Assembly: GCA_964535935.1 (NCBI GenBank)
Contig: CAZHWM010000004.1
Span: 47,569 to 111,568 of the forward strand
Length of the DNA: 64,000 bases
DNA from: an uncultured Planctomycetales bacterium
Lineage (GTDB): Bacteria; Omnitrophota; Gorgyraeia; Zapsychrales; Zapsychraceae
Direction: 5' to 3'
Shown: piece after piece, positions 3,432-51,269 of the stretch
Layout of the letters: every line of letters starts with the position of its first letter
Numbering within the stretch: the first letter of the stretch is position 1
Made by a program: the position numbers and the translations under genes
The notes under the pieces: generated by a model
Told to the model about the DNA's origin: nothing
The model's input: only the letters and a program-made list of their open reading frames with translations
Databases searched by the model: none

Positions 3432-4269
3432 AAAGGCTGCTGTTCTCATTGAGGCTATCCCTTATATACACGCATTTCGCAAAAAGATATTTGTGATAAA
3501 GTATGGGGGCAGTATATTAGATAATGATGGAATTAGAAAAAATGTTCTTGAGGATGTAGTTTTTTTAAGTTATGTAGGAATTCGTACAGTAGTAGTTCAT
3601 GGAGGAGGCCCACATATAAGTAGTCGTTTAAAAAAAGCAGGCTTGAAGTCGGAATTTCATCAGGGCATTCGTGTTACAGATGAAGCAACTCTTAGGATAG
3701 TAAGTGAGGAGCTTAGTAAACTTAATAGGAAACTTGTTAAGGAAATAACGGACTTGAAGGGAGATGTTACTGGTTTAGAGGGAGATGAGAATTTAATTCG
3801 TGTTAAGAAGCGTGAGGCATCTAAGGATTTAGGTTTTGTTGGCAGTATAACCTCTATTGATAAGAATGCCTTTGATGTTCATTTACGCCAAGGACTTATT
3901 ACTGTTGTTTCCCCTATGGGAATTACTGAAGATGGGCAACTTTATAACATTAATGCAGATGAGGTTGCCAGTGCTATAGCAATTGAGATGAAGGCAGAGA
4001 AATTGGTTTTACTGACTAATGTCGTAGGTGTTCTTCGTGAATCTGATAACTCAGAGTCTCTTATTTCTACTCTTACTGTGGATGAAATAGAGGATCTTAT
4101 AAAAATGAATGTTATTCAAGGAGGGATGATACCAAAGGTTAATGCATGTATTGAGGCTCTTGAAGGTGGTGTTAAGAAAACACATATTTTGGACGCAAGA
4201 ATACAGCATGCGCTTTTGCTTGAGTTTTTTACCAATCAGGGTATAGGTACCCAGATATTGAAGCAATAA
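3415..4269 (+). CDS. argB: Acetylglutamate kinase
   Basis: VIKYGGS amino-acid kinase motif; overlaps argJ by 17 nt. Confidence 0.9.
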   Translation: MDDIIKKAAVLIEAIPYIHAFRKKIFVIKYGGSILDNDGIRKNVLEDVVFLSYVGIRTVVVHGGGPHISSRLKKAGLKSEFHQGIRVTDEATLRIVSEELSKLNRKLVKEITDLKGDVTGLEGDENLIRVKKREASKDLGFVGSITSIDKNAFDVHLRQGLITVVSPMGITEDGQLYNINADEVASAIAIEMKAEKLVLLTNVVGVLRESDNSESLISTLTVDEIEDLIKMNVIQGGMIPKVNACIEALEGGVKKTHILDARIQHALLLEFFTNQGIGTQILKQ

Positions 4270-4346
4270 AGTATTATATAATATATAATACTTTATTATA
4301 CAAATAAATTTTGTAACTTTATAAAAAATATATAGTTATTATAATC

Positions 4347-9165: not shown

Positions 9166-9628
9166 AGCTATATTTGTATAGGTATTTTGGAGATGAGTTA
9201 TGTTATAAAATTACTCCGTCCGTTTTATATAAATTTAGGCAAAAGATATATAAAATTTTCGAAGATATATTTCCTTGATACAGGTTTGTTGTGTCATTTT
9301 TGGGGATACGGTCTTCTAAAGAAATAGGTTTTCATGCATTAAGAGGCGATATATTTGAATCCTTGAAAGTAGGTTTTAATAAAAGAATAAAAAATTTTTA
9401 AAATGGTGTTTGTTTTTATAAGTGGAAAAATTTTAATAAAGACCAAAAATATTTTGGCTAAGAAATTAAAAAATCCTTTTTTGACGAGGAGGTTGTAATA
9501 TTTAATTAATTTGACCGGGCTTATCAGTTGTGATACATTGTACTTGAGGTATAAACTTCTATAAGAATGTAGAAGTAATGCATTATTTTTGAGGTTGCTC
9601 ACATAAAGAAAAAATAGGATGGAATTTA

Positions 9629-10921
9629 ATGGTAGTTGATAAAGACATGCATAAAGATAATTTTATATTCAAAAACAAAGAGTTGTATTGCGAAGGGGTT
9701 AGAGTTGCAGATATTGCCAAGGAAGTCGGAACGCCTTTTTATCTTTATAGTTATAAAGCATTAGTTGACCGTTTTAATGAGATTAAGTCAGCCTTTAAAG
9801 AGGTTTATCCTGTTATTTGTTTTTCTATGAAATCAAATAATAATATAGCTGTCTTAAAGGCATTGGTGGATAAAGGGGCAGGGTTGGATATAGTTTCAGG
9901 TGGGGAGCTTAAAAAGGCCTTGATGGCGGAGTGTCCTGCTGAAAGGATTGTATTTGCTTCTGTAGGAAAGACATCAGATGAGATAATCTCAGCAATTAAG
10001 GCTGGTATATTATTTTTTAACGTCGAATCCATAGCAGAGCTGGAAGAGATTAATATTTTGGCAGAGAGGTTGGGTAAGAAGGTTCAGGTAGTATTGCGTA
10101 TTAATCCGGATGTTGAGGCAGCTACTCATGATGCCATTAAAACAGGTACGCTTGAGAAGAAGTTTGGAATAGATTTGATGAATGCATATAAGATATTTAT
10201 GTCAAAAGATACATATCCTAGTCTTAAGTTAAGTGGGATACATATACATATAGGCTCACAGATTACATCTATACGTCCGTTTGTCTCTGCAATAAAAAAG
10301 ACGGTTGCATTTATAGATAGGCTTAAAAAAGATGGCATTTGTCTTGAATATTTTGATATAGGCGGTGGGTTTGGTATAAGGTATAAGGATGAAAAGCTAC
10401 AGCCTGTTAGCAAGTTTGCTGCGGCAATAATCCCATATCTTAAAAAGGCAGGCTTAAAGATAGTTATAGAACCTGGCAGATTTATAGCAGGGAATGCAGG
10501 GATTTTTGTAACGAGTGTTTTATATTTTAAAGACAATGGTGTTAAAAAGTTTTTTATTGTTGATGGTTCTATGAGTGAGCTTATCAGACCCTCGCTTTAC
10601 AGCGCGTATCATAAGATAATCCCTGTGAAAGAAACTACAGTAAAAAAGATAAAGGTTGATGTTGTTGGCCCTGTTTGTGAAAGTGGTGATTTCTTGGGAA
10701 AGGATAGATTATTGCCTGAGCTTGATAAAGGACAGCTGCTTGCTGTGATGAGTGCAGGAGCATATGGTTATGTAATGGCAAGCAATTATAATATGCGTCC
10801 GCGACCCGCTGAGGTCATGGTGAAAGGCAATCGGTTCGATATAGTAAGAAGGAGAGAATCTTTTAAAGATCTTATTAAAACAGAAAAAATACCGGAGTTT
10901 TTAAAAGATGAAAACAGTTAA
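9629..10921 (+). CDS. lysA: Diaminopimelate decarboxylase
   Basis: 430 aa Orn/DAP/Arg decarboxylase fold; GTPFYLY, PLP-lysine region, CESGD motif. Confidence 0.85.
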   Translation: MVVDKDMHKDNFIFKNKELYCEGVRVADIAKEVGTPFYLYSYKALVDRFNEIKSAFKEVYPVICFSMKSNNNIAVLKALVDKGAGLDIVSGGELKKALMAECPAERIVFASVGKTSDEIISAIKAGILFFNVESIAELEEINILAERLGKKVQVVLRINPDVEAATHDAIKTGTLEKKFGIDLMNAYKIFMSKDTYPSLKLSGIHIHIGSQITSIRPFVSAIKKTVAFIDRLKKDGICLEYFDIGGGFGIRYKDEKLQPVSKFAAAIIPYLKKAGLKIVIEPGRFIAGNAGIFVTSVLYFKDNGVKKFFIVDGSMSELIRPSLYSAYHKIIPVKETTVKKIKVDVVGPVCESGDFLGKDRLLPELDKGQLLAVMSAGAYGYVMASNYNMRPRPAEVMVKGNRFDIVRRRESFKDLIKTEKIPEFLKDENS

Positions 10922-17416: not shown

Positions 17417-17492
17417 AAAGCCACAAGGAGGTCAGGATCGGTTACTCGATCGTTGTTGTGTTTTGACATCCTTGTGGCTTTCTGGTTTTTTT
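17417..17492 (+). terminator. Rho-independent terminator (13-bp stem, structured loop, U-run)
   Basis: AAAGCCACAAGGA…TCCTTGTGGCTTT followed by CTGGTTTTTTTG, immediately downstream of the H1-like gene. Confidence 0.6.
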
Positions 17493-37606: not shown

Positions 37607-37639
37607 TCGTAATGGAAAGGTTATAATAACGCTCCGTTT

Positions 37640-37671
37640 AAAAGGTGCGCCATTAAAATGGCGCACCTTTT
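37640..37671. terminator. Bidirectional rho-independent terminator
   Basis: AAAAGGTGCGCCATT…AATGGCGCACCTTTT: perfect GC-rich hairpin with A-run and T-run on either side, between convergent hcp (+) and the flavin reductase gene (-). Confidence 0.8.
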
Positions 37672-37723
37672 ATTATGGCAGTATTTTAAAATAATATGAT
37701 TAAAATTTATAAGAATACTATTA

Positions 37724-41158: not shown

Positions 41159-41974
41159 TTATAGAAATGGCACTATATCCATTTCATCCCTAATGCCAAG
41201 TCTAGTTAAAGCAAAGTCATATTTTACGGGATCATTAGGTTGTATGTATTTGAATTTCTCTGTAATCTCAATAGCTGTTTTAAGGTCAACATTTTTTCTT
41301 TTTGTGAAGCCAAGGGTATGTGCTATCGTAAACATATGTGTGTCAACTGGTACGATAAGTATAGAAGATGGAATACCTTCCCAGCAGCCCGGATCTACTT
41401 TATCACTACGTACCATCCATCGCAAGAATAGATTGAATCTTTTGCAAGCACTTCCTTTAGAAGGGGAGGGAATAAGAAAGTTAATCTTATTACCAGAAGC
41501 CTTTTTTATCTCCTCACAGAACCCCATTAGCGCATAAATTATTTTGGGATGTTTTTTATTGTTAAGATGAGATTTAAATCCTGTTTCCAAAGAACCATAT
41601 TGTTTGATTATCCCTCTTATTCCAATGAGTAATGAAAACATGTCTTCTTCTGTTGTAAATCTATATTTAAATCCTAATATATCTTTTTTTATCTCAGAAG
41701 GAGATTTCGTCATTAAATATAGCCTTGGTCTTTTCCCTAATATATTTAGGATTTTTTGTACATTTTTTAATATTTGGTTTACTTTCCCGTATGCCAAGCT
41801 GGATGCTATTAATCCAACGATTTCTTGATCCAATCTGTCTTTATAGTTATATAAAAATTCAAGAGGATCAGGATGTATAAATTTGTAATGATTATAATAA
41901 TCGTATAATCTATTGAGTTGTATCTTTAATTCATCAGTGTGGCTCAGTTTTTTGTTTTGTTTTTTGTAAGTCAT
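41159..41974 (-). CDS. Conserved hypothetical protein (DUF2400/TIGR02757-like by recollection)
   Basis: 271 aa; co-directional and tightly packed between the Fur-family gene and rbr; the family assignment is from memory and unverified. Confidence 0.35.
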   Translation of the reverse strand: MTYKKQNKKLSHTDELKIQLNRLYDYYNHYKFIHPDPLEFLYNYKDRLDQEIVGLIASSLAYGKVNQILKNVQKILNILGKRPRLYLMTKSPSEIKKDILGFKYRFTTEEDMFSLLIGIRGIIKQYGSLETGFKSHLNNKKHPKIIYALMGFCEEIKKASGNKINFLIPSPSKGSACKRFNLFLRWMVRSDKVDPGCWEGIPSSILIVPVDTHMFTIAHTLGFTKRKNVDLKTAIEITEKFKYIQPNDPVKYDFALTRLGIRDEMDIVPFL

Positions 41975-42374
41975 TGGATTTGTCTTTACATTTAGGACAG
42001 ATTCCCCAAAATTCTACATTATGTTTAACCATTTTATAACCATATTTTTTTTCGATGATTTTATCTACTGCTATATTTTGTTTTAGAGATATATCATCTA
42101 TTTTTCCACAGTTTGTACATTTGATATGATAGTGTGGATGAGTATGACTGTCATAGCGAGCAGGACTCCCATCTATATCTAGTTTTAGTATTACTCCTTC
42201 ATTCACTAGTTTTTCAAGATTCCTATATATTGTACTTAAGCTTACTTTAGGTAGTCTTTTTTTTACTTTTTCATAAAGTTCTGTTGCATCAGGATGTGTG
42301 TATGTTTTTGTAAGTTCTTCTATAATAATCTGCCCTTGGGTTGTTTTTCTTGTTTTTTTTATATTATTTATCAT
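41934..42374 (-). CDS. Fur family transcriptional regulator (PerR-like)
   Basis: 146 aa; Fur-family HTH (…LSTIYRNLEKL…) and metal sites (HxHxH, CxxC…CxxC); heads the oxidative-stress operon. Confidence 0.8.
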   Translation of the reverse strand: MINNIKKTRKTTQGQIIIEELTKTYTHPDATELYEKVKKRLPKVSLSTIYRNLEKLVNEGVILKLDIDGSPARYDSHTHPHYHIKCTNCGKIDDISLKQNIAVDKIIEKKYGYKMVKHNVEFWGICPKCKDKSNDLQKTKQKTEPH

Positions 42375-42690: not shown

Positions 42691-44208
42691 ATGTCAGAAA
42701 GGAACAATGGTAGGATTGCTTTTTTAAATTCACCTTACATATTAAAAGAAGATTTTCATCAACATATGCCACCGCTTTCTCTTCTCTATCTTGCTACTTA
42801 CATGAAAAGCAATGGATTTGATGTACGGATTTATAATTTAGATAGGTTTGTTAGGGATAAAGGATTTCGATACCTAGGCTATAATCTTAATAGTTTATTT
42901 AATAATCTTTCTTTGTTTAACCCTCAGATGATAGGCATAACATGTCAATATTCCGCAAGATGGCCATTTGTACAGAGGCTGATTGAGATAATTAAAAGAT
43001 GGTTTAAAGATATTCCTGTTGTGATAGGTGGAATTCATCCTACGTGTTTCCCTGAATATTGCCTCTGTTCAAGTAAGGCAGACTACATAATTTTAGGAGA
43101 AGGCGAGTTTAGTTGCTTGGAATTATTTAAACATGTTCTCTCAAGAACGACACCTTCTGGTTTAGATGGTGTGGCTTTTAGAGATAATAGTAAAATTATC
43201 TGCAACCCAAAGAAGAGTTTTATAACTGACCTTGATACTTTGCCTTTTCCTGATTATTCTTTGATTGATATAAATAGATATAAACAGCTTTGCAGGAAAG
43301 ATTATATAGCTCAATTAAAGGGAATGTATTTCCCAGTTTTAACTTCTAGGAGTTGTCCTAATCAGTGTAGGTATTGTAATTTATATCTTGTGCATGGTAG
43401 AAAATGGAGGGCGAGAAGTCCTGATAATGTAGTTAAGGAACTCAGCTATTTGGTGGAAACATATAAGGTAAGACAGTTTGCATTTGTAGATGATAATTTT
43501 TCATTCTCAAGAGAGCGTACTATTGCTATACTTAAAGAGATAGTTAATGGTAAAATAGGTCCTATTAAGTTTATCCCTTTAAATGGCTTATCAGTAAAGA
43601 CTTTGGATGATGAGGTTATATGGTATTTAAAGAAAGCAGGAGCACTTGAGGTATCCTTAGCGATTGAATCAGGAAGTGAATATATAAGAAATACTGTTTA
43701 TAATAAAAAGGTGTCTACGAAAAAGATAATAGAAGTAGTGAGGGCATGTAAAAAATACAATTTAATATGTAAGGCCTTTTTTATGGTAGGTGCACCAGAA
43801 GAGACAGATGATACTATTAAAGAGAGTATAGATTTGATGCGGGAGATTAGAATACCTGCTAGTTTTAGTATTACAACTCCTTTTAAGGGGACAAAGTTAT
43901 ATGATTATTATATGAAAAAAAAACTTATTAGTGAAGACGAGCTTAAGCGAGGTTACTTTTTGGATCTTCGTTTACCTATAGGAAATACAAAAAGTTATAC
44001 GCAGATTATTCAGTGGAGAAGAAAACTTATGATTTATAATATATGGTATTCGTTACCGGAGCTACTTAAACACTCAAAACTACTTACATTTCATAATTTT
44101 AATAGACTTTTGGCAACGGTTTTATTTCCAAAGAAACTTACTATGGATATTATAAATTATGCTATGGATAAGTATATGCCGTTATTTCGATATCGAAAAA
44201 ATGTATAA
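42691..44208 (+). CDS. B12-binding-domain radical SAM protein
   Basis: 505 aa; N-terminal cobalamin-binding-like domain and CxxxCxxC (SCPNQCRYC) radical SAM motif. Confidence 0.8.
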   Translation: MSERNNGRIAFLNSPYILKEDFHQHMPPLSLLYLATYMKSNGFDVRIYNLDRFVRDKGFRYLGYNLNSLFNNLSLFNPQMIGITCQYSARWPFVQRLIEIIKRWFKDIPVVIGGIHPTCFPEYCLCSSKADYIILGEGEFSCLELFKHVLSRTTPSGLDGVAFRDNSKIICNPKKSFITDLDTLPFPDYSLIDINRYKQLCRKDYIAQLKGMYFPVLTSRSCPNQCRYCNLYLVHGRKWRARSPDNVVKELSYLVETYKVRQFAFVDDNFSFSRERTIAILKEIVNGKIGPIKFIPLNGLSVKTLDDEVIWYLKKAGALEVSLAIESGSEYIRNTVYNKKVSTKKIIEVVRACKKYNLICKAFFMVGAPEETDDTIKESIDLMREIRIPASFSITTPFKGTKLYDYYMKKKLISEDELKRGYFLDLRLPIGNTKSYTQIIQWRRKLMIYNIWYSLPELLKHSKLLTFHNFNRLLATVLFPKKLTMDIINYAMDKYMPLFRYRKNV

Positions 44209-47037: not shown

Positions 47038-47088
47038 TTGACAGCATTTATTTTGTTTGTTATATTTGATAATGAAAACCATTATCAA
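47038..47088 (+). promoter_or_regulatory. sigma70 promoter (TTGACA, 17 nt, TATATT) overlapped by a Fur-box-like palindrome
   Basis: TTGACA 47038-47043, -10 TATATT 47061-47066; palindrome TTGATAATG-AAAAC-CATTATCAA at 47066-47088 matches 16/19 of the GATAATGATAATCATTATC consensus. Confidence 0.6.
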
Positions 47089-47104: not shown

Positions 47105-47578
47105 ATGTCTGGTAATATGAATGCGAAACGACCGTGGTGGCATGGAAGATTTAGAGGATGTGGATATAGGATTACTGCAAGTAGGGAGGTTATATTGAAA
47201 GTGTTGTCGGAAACCAAAAAGCATCTTAGTGCAGAAGAAATATTTATTAGTGCTCATAAACTTAATCCGGCTATAGGTCTTACTACTATATATAGGACAT
47301 TAGATATATTGGTGAGTATGGGACTCATTTCTAAATTTGATTTTGGCGATGGCAGATCGAGATATGAGTTATCAGAAGGTCCAGATGGTAGTAGACATCA
47401 CCATCATCTTATATGTACATCGTGTAATAGAGTTATAGATTATACTGATTTTATAGATGAAGAGGTTGATTTATTAATACGGACAGAAAAAGGGCTTTCT
47501 GAGAAATATAATTTTAAGATATCACATCATTTAATTCAATTTTATGGTTTGTGTAGTAATTGTCAGAAGCGTAGTTAG
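47105..47578 (+). CDS. fur: Fur family metalloregulator
   Basis: 157 aa; Fur HTH (…LTTIYRTLDIL…), HHHH metal site, CxxC…CxxC. Confidence 0.85.
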   Translation: MSGNMNAKRPWWHGRFRGCGYRITASREVILKVLSETKKHLSAEEIFISAHKLNPAIGLTTIYRTLDILVSMGLISKFDFGDGRSRYELSEGPDGSRHHHHLICTSCNRVIDYTDFIDEEVDLLIRTEKGLSEKYNFKISHHLIQFYGLCSNCQKRS

Positions 47579-47621: not shown

Positions 47622-47648
47622 TTGATGAAAACGGTTATCATTATTATT
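47622..47648 (+). promoter_or_regulatory. Second Fur-box-like site (TTGATGAAAACGGTTATCATTATTATT)
   Basis: Shares the ATGAAAACnnTTATCA core with the site at 47066-47088; ~60 bp upstream of the DUF5320 gene. Confidence 0.35.
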
Positions 47649-47706: not shown

Positions 47707-48030
47707 ATGCCAAGAGGAGATGGGACAGGTCCGGCAGGTGCAGGCCCCATGACAGGTGGCGGTTGGGGATATTGTGCAGGATTTAATGTCCCTGGATATC
47801 TGAATGTAGGTGCCGGGGGATTTGGTTTTCCTTCTGGTCGTGGACTAGGATTAGGCTTGAGGGGCAGGAGAGGGTTTAGAAATATGTTCTATGCAACAGG
47901 TCTGCCTGCTTGGGCAAGAGGAGAATATCCTCAAAAACAAGATGCCTCTGTATTGAAAGCCGAAGAGGAGGCTTTAAAAAAGAGGTTAGAGGCAGTTCGT
48001 AAGCAACTTGATAGTTTAGAACAGTCATAA
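47707..48030 (+). CDS. DUF5320-like glycine-rich protein
   Basis: 107 aa; N-terminal MPRGDGTGPxGxGPMTGGGxGYCAGF…GYxNxG…GLPxWAR motif string plus a C-terminal coiled coil; GGAGG RBS. Confidence 0.6.
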   Translation: MPRGDGTGPAGAGPMTGGGWGYCAGFNVPGYLNVGAGGFGFPSGRGLGLGLRGRRGFRNMFYATGLPAWARGEYPQKQDASVLKAEEEALKKRLEAVRKQLDSLEQS

Positions 48031-48045
48031 GATTAATAGCTTAAT

Positions 48046-48120
48046 GCTATTCTGCACTATTTAACCTTGTTAAATAGTGAAAAATGCACAAATCAACAAG
48101 GTTAAATAGTGCAGAATAGC
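48046..48120. repeat. Perfect 26-bp inverted repeat with a 23-nt loop (large hairpin)
   Basis: GCTATTCTGCACTATTTAACCTTGTT (48046-48071) and its exact reverse complement at 48095-48120. Confidence 0.9.
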
Positions 48121-48157
48121 GGAATAGGGAATTTAGTGAATTGTGAAGGGAGTGATT

Positions 48158-48550
48158 ATGCGTATTGCAATTTCTACAGATAACGGTATGGTATCTGCAC
48201 ATTTTGGTAGGTGTCCTGTTTTTACGATTGTAGAAATAGAGAATGGTAATATTCTTAAAAAAGAACAAATAGAGAATCCAGGTCATCAACCAGGGCTTAT
48301 ACCGCAATTTTTACATGAGAAGGGGATAAATTGTATTGTAGCAGGTGGTATGGGTATGAGAGCAAAGGGTTTTTTTGAGGAGTTTGGTATAGAAACCATA
48401 ACGGGTATATCAGGAAGTGTTGATGATGTTATAGATGAACTGATTAATGGTACTTTGAAAGGGACAGATAGTTTGTGTATTCCGGGTGAAGGAAAAGGTT
48501 ATGGTTTGGATAAACAGATATGCGATCATGGTTATAACCATGGTTGTTAA
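48158..48550 (+). CDS. NifX/NifB-C-terminal-like dinitrogenase FeMo-cofactor-binding domain protein (Nitro_FeMo-Co family)
   Basis: MRIAISTDNG…FGRCPVF…GINCIVAGGMG pattern of the Nitro_FeMo-Co family; ATG at 48158 after GAAGGGAG. Confidence 0.7.
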   Translation: MRIAISTDNGMVSAHFGRCPVFTIVEIENGNILKKEQIENPGHQPGLIPQFLHEKGINCIVAGGMGMRAKGFFEEFGIETITGISGSVDDVIDELINGTLKGTDSLCIPGEGKGYGLDKQICDHGYNHGC

Positions 48551-51234: not shown

Positions 51235-51269
51235 TATATAAAATTTATAGAATGAGAGGTTTTGTATAT

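Follow-up and report, generated by a model that had tools for sequence, protein, structure and literature searches.

The closest described counterparts of the element treated here are REPINs, which are doublets built from repetitive extragenic palindromic (REP) units, together with the REP-associated tyrosine transposases (RAYTs). The REPIN-RAYT system has been defined, and the roles of REP sequences laid out, in work that concentrates on proteobacteria such as Escherichia coli, Pseudomonas, and Neisseria (PMC3116915, PMC3337134, bioRxiv 10.1101/2021.07.10.451892). The hallmarks described there include centre bases that mark the orientation of the units and long singlets of the form a-palindrome-a^c, which represent excision products (same three sources). 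The present study concerns a perfect 26-bp inverted repeat at positions 48046-48120 of a 64-kb stretch of DNA (contig CAZHWM010000004.1; the whole stretch is called the window) from an uncultured bacterium that is Omnitrophota-like by protein similarity. The repeat lies inside an operon, between a DUF5320 gene and the first of two NifX-like genes. Judged from its sequence, this hairpin is very probably a copy of a dispersed REPIN family, that is, a non-autonomous mobile DNA element. Taken as a whole, it is considered likely that a REPIN copy has been placed in the slot of a conserved operon hairpin, where it would act as an mRNA barrier or attenuator.

In E. coli, REP sequences and bacterial interspersed mosaic elements (BIMEs) reportedly serve as intercistronic mRNA stabilisers or attenuators, as Higgins, Newbury, and Stern in the 1980s and Espeli in 2001 are said to have found, with malE-malF and the histidine transport operon as examples. 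The element in the window resembles them as a palindromic repeat between co-directional cistrons that sits near the upstream stop codon, lacks a U-tract, and leaves the downstream genes dependent on read-through. Its predicted function would be alike as well, whereas the sequences are unrelated. Hairpins native to their operons are also known as intercistronic decay barriers, for instance in pufBA-LMX of Rhodobacter capsulatus. As for gene content, the orange-protein (orp) clusters of Desulfovibrio combine a NifX-like orange protein (ORP) with MinD/Mrp-like Fe-S ATPases. The gene set at the present locus comprises a Fur-family regulator, DUF5320, two NifX-like proteins, an S-adenosylmethionine (SAM) methyltransferase, two MinD/ParA ATPases (4Fe-4S), ARMT1/DUF89, and a metallo-beta-lactamase (MBL)-fold protein. 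In gene content, this operon resembles the orp clusters, with which it has NifX-like proteins and MinD/ParA ATPases with 4Fe-4S domains in common. Unlike those clusters, it is headed by a Fur paralogue and DUF5320, and no sigma-54 regulator was seen.

The hairpin and its repeat family

The left arm of the hairpin (48046-48071, GCTATTCTGCACTATTTAACCTTGTT) and the segment 48095-48120 are exact reverse complements, with 26 of 26 base pairs formed around a 23-nt loop (48072-48094), just as an earlier note on this DNA had described it. The folding check that was then run on 48031-48160 as RNA gave a free energy (dG) of -46.5 kcal/mol against -20.4 +/- 3.3 in dinucleotide shuffles (z -7.9), and none of 200 such shuffles folded as well. 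The gap between the DUF5320 stop codon (48028-48030) and the ATG of the first NifX-like gene (NifX1; 48158) measures 127 nt, which confirms the placement given in the note; the hairpin begins 15 nt past the stop and ends 37 nt ahead of the start. No T-run follows the stem, the downstream sequence being GGAATAGGGAA, and a terminator scan of the window made no call at the hairpin, so the view that this is not a terminator stands. The loop had also been said to repeat a stem motif. Indeed, GTTAAATAGTG occurs on the loop side (48069-48079) as well as in the right arm (48101-48111), with its complement at 48055-48065, and the loop holds a degenerate third arm copy (GTTAAATAGTGaAaAAT at 48069-48085). 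Alternatively, the region can be read as a 32-nt tandem repeat.

The 26-mer arm has only two sites in 64 kb (none expected from shuffles), and no further arm copy was found in the window when up to three mismatches were allowed. An independent metagenome assembly at NCBI (L002; the loci and contigs compared with the window carry L numbers) has the same hairpin, identical in sequence. Within the DUF5320-NifX1 spacer of the window this hairpin is the sole structure, with no separate native hairpin left. An Rfam search of the window (E <= 1) returned only sub-threshold matches to plant and animal microRNA (miRNA) precursors, at 40 bits or less compared with the 70-245 required, which are generic hairpin signal.

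When metagenome contigs were scanned with the 19-nt arm TGCACTATTTAACCTTGTT, at least 40 stretches matched, mostly on many large contigs of one Joint Genome Institute (JGI) metagenome and in the NCBI metagenome assembly that holds the window locus. Among the matches listed, there are at least 69 unique family elements (50 doublets and 19 singlets), and copies are spread over at least 15 contigs of one metagenome; the family k-mer is CTGCACTATTTAACCTTGTT together with its variants. The unit consensus is CAC(TATTT/AAATC)AAC(CTT/AAG)GTT(AAATA/GATTT)GTG, and two 25-nt units stand inverted around a 7-nt spacer. The resulting doublet consensus of 73 nt (cTATtCTGCACaAtTtAACCTTGTTAAATAGTGAAAAATGCACAAATCAACAAGGTTAAATaGTGCAGaATAg) is matched by the window copy, both units of which fit CAC-5-AAC-3-GTT-5-GTG, a short imperfect palindromic core. 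The centres of doublets always read CTT...AAG, meaning two units in inverted orientation. The central module is found in both orientations at near-equal numbers (about 24 versus 23 copies among the matches listed), and the A-rich spacer form lies in the mRNA sense in 28 copies versus 14, which is a weak orientation bias. The 5-mers of the outer arms, with alleles A and B, combine freely, being complementary in 13 and non-complementary in 16 of the 29 scorable doublets. Since the outer arms are mismatched in those 16, the perfect 26/26 stem of the window is just the A..A combination, and its perfection is not itself selected. Moreover, the REP units are themselves imperfect palindromes of 25 nt, and this accounts for the stem motif that recurs in the loop. 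Membership in the REPIN family thus explains the size, the perfection, and the repeated motif without invoking regulation.

Regarding placement, 54 of the 59 classifiable copies among the matches listed are intergenic and 53 lie between co-directional open reading frames (ORFs); the five copies called inside ORFs fall in doubtful ones. At the median, the family copies sit 15 nt past the stop of the upstream ORF and 19 nt ahead of the start that follows. In tetranucleotide composition, the carrier contigs correlate with the window at a median r of 0.974, compared with 0.990 between the window halves and 0.83 for other species, and two chance arm matches in unrelated organisms stand apart at r 0.74. 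Additionally, long palindromic singlets of the form a-palindrome-a^c are present among the family copies and thus match the published REPIN excision products. For large and seemingly perfect intergenic hairpins in uncultured lineages, the repeat families of the genome itself should therefore be checked before a riboswitch-like element or an operator is called.

The likeness to known REPINs extends to several features. As in groups GI-GIII of Pseudomonas fluorescens SBW25 and in the REP/RAYT of E. coli, inverted REPs that are imperfect palindromes surround a spacer and form a long hairpin, and the centre bases mark orientation, CTT...AAG here and TT...AA in SBW25. Dispersed extragenic copies, singlets with extended arms, a Y1/HUH gene flanked by copies, and persistence at one locus across lineages are likewise shared. 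In contrast, the host is no proteobacterium, the element is 73 bp long instead of about 100, its spacer is very short (7 nt), and its arm 5-mers come as two discrete alleles (TATTT/AAATC) in all combinations. What appears to be new is that a compact REPIN family, accompanied by a candidate RAYT bearing a helix-turn-helix (HTH) tail, occurs in an uncultured Omnitrophota-like lineage, outside the proteobacteria on which the cited REPIN papers concentrate. The anatomy of the window copy is given in Table 1 together with the surrounding features.

Table 1. Positions of the hairpin, its parts, and nearby operon features in the window
Feature	Position	Strand	Remarks
Fur-box-like palindrome TTTGATAATG-N5-CATTATCAAA	47065-47089	.	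upstream of fur; overlaps promoter-like TTGACA-17-TATATT (47038-47066)
Fur-family regulator gene, upstream	47105-47578	+	PF01475, E 7e-31
Weaker, partial Fur-box-like match TTGATGAAAACGGTTATCATTA	47622-47643		upstream of DUF5320
DUF5320 gene	47707-48030	+	PF17253, E 3e-27
Whole hairpin, one REP doublet (REPIN) copy	48046-48120	+	nhmmer family profile match 48047-48119, E 1e-23
Left outer conserved flank CTATTCTG	48047-48054	+	complementary to 48112-48119; consensus cTATtCTGCAC...GTGCAGaATAg
REP unit 1, CACTATTTAAC-CTT-GTTAAATAGTG	48055-48079	+	perfect 11-bp palindrome, arm types A,A, centre CTT
Spacer AAAAATG between REP units, 7 nt	48080-48086	+	other copies: AAAAATG or CATTTTT
REP unit 2, CACAAATCAAC-AAG-GTTAAATAGTG	48087-48111	+	imperfect palindrome, arms B,A, centre AAG; inverted versus unit 1; 75% direct repeat
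Right outer conserved flank CAGAATAG	48112-48119	+	family consensus
Shine-Dalgarno-like AAGGGAG for NifX1	48146-48152	+	read from sequence; 25 nt past stem, 5 nt before ATG
First NifX-like (Nitro_FeMo-Co) gene, NifX1	48158-48550	+	PF02579; syntenic in orthologous loci

Furthermore, a motif scan of all ORFs yielded one RAYT candidate (L113 9469-10389, VAPK010939693.1), a protein of 306 aa with the motifs YHIIQH, HLHLL, and YIHLNPVKAG...WSS. It scores 36 bits against Pfam Y1_Tnp, above the gathering threshold (GA) of 23, and its best NCBIfam match is 'REP-associated tyrosine transposase' (REP_Tyr_transpos; E 1e-19, 70.8 bits). Doublets abut both ends of the gene (9349-9421 and 10362-10434), and a third is found at 10529-10601 of the same contig. 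As a tyrosine transposase of the Y1/HUH type, the RAYT would spread the REPIN as a single-strand hairpin. Another contig (L120 1-777, Ga0256914_1000029), when set against L113 9349-10601, has flanks that are 99% identical and a single doublet in place of the RAYT segment, for which either recombination between REPINs or assembly collapse may account.

Close relatives of the window differ at the hairpin site. In one with 95% NifX1 identity (L005/L007), the arms are the same, the centre is reverse-complemented with respect to the window, and the outer 7 bp remain unpaired. Another, at 94% (L009), has one 32-nt unit only, a singlet, and the contig of an 83% relative opens on ...GAATTGTGCAGGATAG, which is how the element typically ends on its right side. 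Between MinD2 and ARMT1, the 95% relative carries a further REP unit (L005 6091-6131), inside a longer palindrome (ACCCAAATGTCAC...GTGACATTTGGGT), where the window has a 17-nt spacer without a REP unit (51235-51251); this amounts to a presence/absence polymorphism within the same operon. Moreover, the ends or starts of five Logan short-read contigs fall within the element. Short-read contigs (Logan, ENA) repeatedly break there at the same bases, as at the end of L001 (6368) and at the starts of L003/L004, L006/L008, and L009. This is consistent with a multi-copy repeat that tangles de Bruijn graphs, and the locus is split in several public assemblies.

A hairpin slot in orthologous operons

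The orthologue set consisted of 80 loci with 62-71% NifX1 identity (L011-L090) and a few close relatives from exact-protein look-ups. Record labels of the orthologues include Omnitrophota, WOR-3, TA06, Nitrospirota, Syntrophales, Elusimicrobia, Auribacterota, Spirochaetota, and others. The gene order Fur-DUF5320-NifX1-NifX2 is kept in orthologous loci, and in nearly all of them the DUF5320->NifX1 spacer contains one strong stem-loop, with a different sequence in each. The earlier note had named orthologous loci without any comparable structure as one finding that would speak against it; a stem-loop was found at this position in nearly all instead. At the median, the native hairpin starts 8 nt after the stop, forms 15 pairs with a loop of 6 nt, ends 26 nt before the ATG, and has a dG of -20.6. 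It lies 2-15 nt past the DUF5320 stop (e.g., L016 1162-1230, L058 2938-3000, and L015 2934-3000), and six or more T in the 10 nt after the stem were counted in only 4 of 66 orthologues, which is chance level.

The enrichment of structure is specific to this spacer. The DUF5320->NifX1 spacers have a median fold z of -3.75, both at all lengths (n=66, 65% below -3) and at 55-140 nt (n=56, 68% below -3). The Fur->DUF5320 spacers (n=56) have a median of -1.0 with 18% below -3, and the other co-directional spacers of 55-140 nt in the same loci (n=68) have a median of -0.75 with 9% below -3. Between the latter and the DUF5320->NifX1 spacers of the same length range, the difference is highly significant (Mann-Whitney p = 2.6e-15). 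When 30 loci were aligned with MAFFT on sequence alone, a helix of 13 pairs was 82% paired compared with 52-61% in slid registers, compensatory changes were present in 12 of the 13 pairs, and the observed scores were reached by none of 500 shuffles. The sense strand folds better than the antisense strand in 47 loci versus 12 (p 2.5e-7), with twice the G-U content, an advantage to which purine-rich Shine-Dalgarno (SD) regions contribute. Hence, at the position taken by the REPIN in the window, a hairpin is conserved across phyla and shows covariation.

The native hairpin is tied to the 3' end of DUF5320. With a long spacer or with other genes in between (L040, L053, L055, L068, L069, L089), it still lies 2-6 nt past the DUF5320 stop, and the loci in which tblastn had missed DUF5320 carry a divergent DUF5320 with the hairpin after it. 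The sole locus truly without DUF5320 (L019) has the Fur box and no hairpin. The arms of native hairpins are not repeated within their own 6-kb loci. As far as these 6-kb loci show, the idea that native hairpins are themselves dispersed repeats was rejected for this reason and because two paralogous loci of one genome differ in their hairpins. Rfam at gathering score found nothing at the hairpin in 20 orthologous loci, and one tRNA elsewhere. The covarying, polar RNA hairpin after DUF5320 in most orthologous operons, with no Rfam family, is thus a new comparative result, and it offers a way into how a widespread, uncharacterised cluster of Fe-S and NifX-like genes associated with anaerobes is regulated. 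As a separate observation, the DUF5320 3' hairpins of six Nitrospirota-labelled loci (L021, L035, L042, L046, L056, L067) share long outer stems, GTCATTGCGA...TCGCAATGAC. The same 10-mer also occurs in the Omnitrophota-labelled L083, and it may be another repeat family.

The native hairpins show strong polarity, with a purine fraction of 0.71 in the 5' arm and 0.29 in the 3' arm (50 versus 8 loci, p 1e-9); SD-like 4-mers are present in 45 of 59 native 5' arms, and anti-SD-like 4-mers in 37 of 59 3' arms. Compared with decay barriers such as that of pufBA-LMX, the orthologue stem-loop is alike in following the first cistron, in its conserved structure and free sequence, and in the absence of a U-tract. 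It is unlike them in the strong polarity of its arms, purine and SD-like at 5', pyrimidine and anti-SD-like at 3', which to our knowledge is not a described feature of decay barriers. The conserved polarity, together with the placement after the stop and before the next start, suggests a translation-linked switch. In such a model, as translation of DUF5320 ends, the terminating ribosome would open the 5' arm, and the freed 3' arm would mask the SD sequence of NifX1. In silico removal of the 5' arm raised the predicted SD pairing of NifX1 from 0.37 to 0.72, but a composition-preserving shuffle of the 3' arm gave likewise 0.74, so that this comparison does not tell SD masking apart from base composition. 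Quite tentatively, the stem-loop 3' of DUF5320 is put forward as a cis-acting RNA element, undescribed and deeply conserved, that belongs to the Fur-controlled DUF5320-NifX-MinD operon. A speculative alternative to the switch is that the hairpin is bound by the arginine- and glycine-rich (RGG-rich) DUF5320 protein, whose own 3' RNA it would be. In the lineage of the window, the REPIN may have taken over the slot with polarity reversed, a natural swap experiment on whether structure alone suffices. The locus makes a natural test case of a selfish element in a functional RNA slot.

Function at the site and competing explanations

The distance from the hairpin to NifX1 is too short to hold a promoter; the seven downstream genes thus depend on read-through, and the element must be transcribed. 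The REPIN would be co-transcribed with the operon and fold into a stem-loop of -46 kcal/mol. Once folded, it could block 3'->5' exonucleases and/or partly attenuate read-through, in the manner of E. coli REP/BIME, and the promoter-proximal message of DUF5320 (and fur) would outlast or outnumber the distal message of NifX, MinD, and ARMT1. By analogy, such a stabiliser or attenuator role of the REPIN at this site is given somewhat less than an even chance. The earlier note had proposed RNA stability, processing, or attenuation in general. That part remains plausible, as orthologues carry a comparable covarying structure, whereas the implied locus-specific sequence does not hold.

Several observations weigh against the reading of the hairpin as a REPIN that serves in a conserved slot. 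The polarity of the window REPIN is opposite to that of native hairpins (5' arm purine fraction 0.31); if polarity matters, the REPIN may be no substitute for the native element and could be an insertion that is tolerated or even does harm. In about six orthologous loci the spacers measure 11-29 nt and contain no hairpin, so the structure is dispensable. Concerning the repeat family, neither the mismatch search nor the nhmmer profile found other copies in the 64-kb window, and the copy-rich and RAYT contigs are placed in the genome of the window by composition and a shared metagenome. For the RAYT contig (tetranucleotide r 0.925 to the window) the tie is composition only. The RAYT candidate itself stays under the curated NCBIfam cut-off (70.8 versus 80 bits) and has an atypical C-terminal HTH extension, in which, as in its length of 306 aa, it departs from known RAYTs.

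The main rival on function takes the copy for a selfish insertion, neutral or mildly deleterious, that plays no part in operon expression. Its principal argument is the reversed polarity, along with the orthologues that lack any hairpin. The occurrence of 53 of 59 listed copies in co-directional spacers of many different operons, the weak bias in orientation to transcription (28 versus 14), and outer-arm complementarity that is not maintained (13 versus 16) point in the same direction. However, the slot is specifically enriched in hairpins across phyla, the REPIN is the sole structure in its spacer, and a stem of -46 kcal/mol in an mRNA is unlikely to be inert. A purely selfish copy is therefore regarded as doubtful, though a serious contender. 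Much less can be said for a locus-specific, selected cis-regulatory RNA hairpin that evolved in place, which was the main idea of the earlier note. The hairpin does sit in the slot of a covarying orthologue stem-loop and persists at the site in relatives down to 83% NifX1 identity. Yet the same 73-nt sequence stands at about 70 other intergenic sites beside unrelated genes, and the family-specific ends, the RAYT association, and a polarity opposite to native hairpins all argue for a mobile origin. The dispersed copies have largely refuted a bespoke element already, and what is left of that idea is very improbable. A factor-independent terminator that ends the fur-DUF5320 transcript is slightly better placed, although still unlikely. 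A strong stem-loop directly after a stop codon would suit it, and some REPIN classes have been co-opted as terminators (PMC3337134), but there is no U-tract, the terminator scan is empty here, a T-rich tail is present in only 4 of 66 orthologues, and the 37 nt from stem to ATG (orthologue median 26) leave no room for a promoter. The terminator reading was rejected, as an intrinsic terminator has a G+C-rich stem of about 5-20 bp, a short loop, and a U-tract, and the hairpin has a 26-bp AT-rich stem and a 23-nt loop followed by GGAATAGGG.

Two further explanations treat the element as DNA. Two tandem palindromic sites for a dimeric regulator such as the Fur paralogue, that is, a double-stranded DNA operator, could be imagined from the two 25-bp palindromic units at a centre-to-centre distance of 32 bp (about three helical turns) and from the Fur-family gene immediately upstream. 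The earlier note had indeed considered a Fur-paralogue binding site. However, the Fur-box motif, an AT-rich palindrome of about 19 bp related to GATAATGATAATCATTATC, has no occurrence within 48046-48120, and neither Fur-box-like site, upstream of fur or upstream of DUF5320, is similar to the hairpin or its REP units. L019, without DUF5320, has a classical Fur box and no hairpin, and the hairpins of orthologous loci share no sequence even though their Fur proteins are 60-75% identical. Compensatory changes and the sense-strand G-U excess point to RNA, and the REP units recur in about 70 unrelated spacers, all of which makes an operator extremely improbable and leaves the proposed Fur-paralogue site unsupported. 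Just as little weight falls to a phase-variable invertible switch in which the 23-nt centre flips between the arms. The reverse-complemented centre of the 95% relative and the contigs that break inside the element in five Logan assemblies would be in keeping with inversion. But both orientations are about equal across the family, as expected of a near-symmetric element, and a multi-copy repeat longer than k accounts for the breaks. Moreover, a nearby invertase was not found, and site-specific inversion of a stretch as short as 23 bp would be unusual. The reversed centre is better explained by the orientation of a near-symmetric REPIN.

Fur sites and neighbouring features

The palindrome upstream of fur is likely the operator of the Fur paralogue, as predicted from its sequence. 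The presence of Fur-box-like sites upstream of both fur and DUF5320 suggests autoregulation together with Fur control of the operon. The Fur paralogues share a conserved N-terminal extension, ...PWWHG(K/R)FRGCGYR (47105-47170 in the window and the Fur ORFs of L011-L022). Several of them start with MPxxDGTGP, the motif that opens DUF5320 (MPRGDGTGP...GYC). DG[TS]GP or PWWH was found in 24 of 70 Fur ORFs, and DG[TS]GP in 48 of 73 DUF5320 sequences. A second Fur-family gene lies on the minus strand at about 41934-42374 (L001 228-668), some 5 kb upstream. It adjoins a DUF2400 gene and a B12-binding radical SAM gene (42691-44208), so that the neighbourhood contains two Fur paralogues.

Regarding DUF5320, neither informative literature on its function nor a solved homologue was found. 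The N-terminal half (47707-47900) is rich in glycine and arginine and RGG-like (GRGLGLGLRGRRGFRN), and the C-terminal part is a coiled coil. Three other strong inverted repeats were observed in the window. One of them, at 37639-37672, has perfect 16-bp arms (TAAAAGGTGCGCCATT/AATGGCGCACCTTTTA) with A/T flanks and the look of a bidirectional terminator. Another at 17417-17481 has 18-nt arms that match at 94%, and a 16-bp palindrome made up of A and T only is located at 4265-4297.

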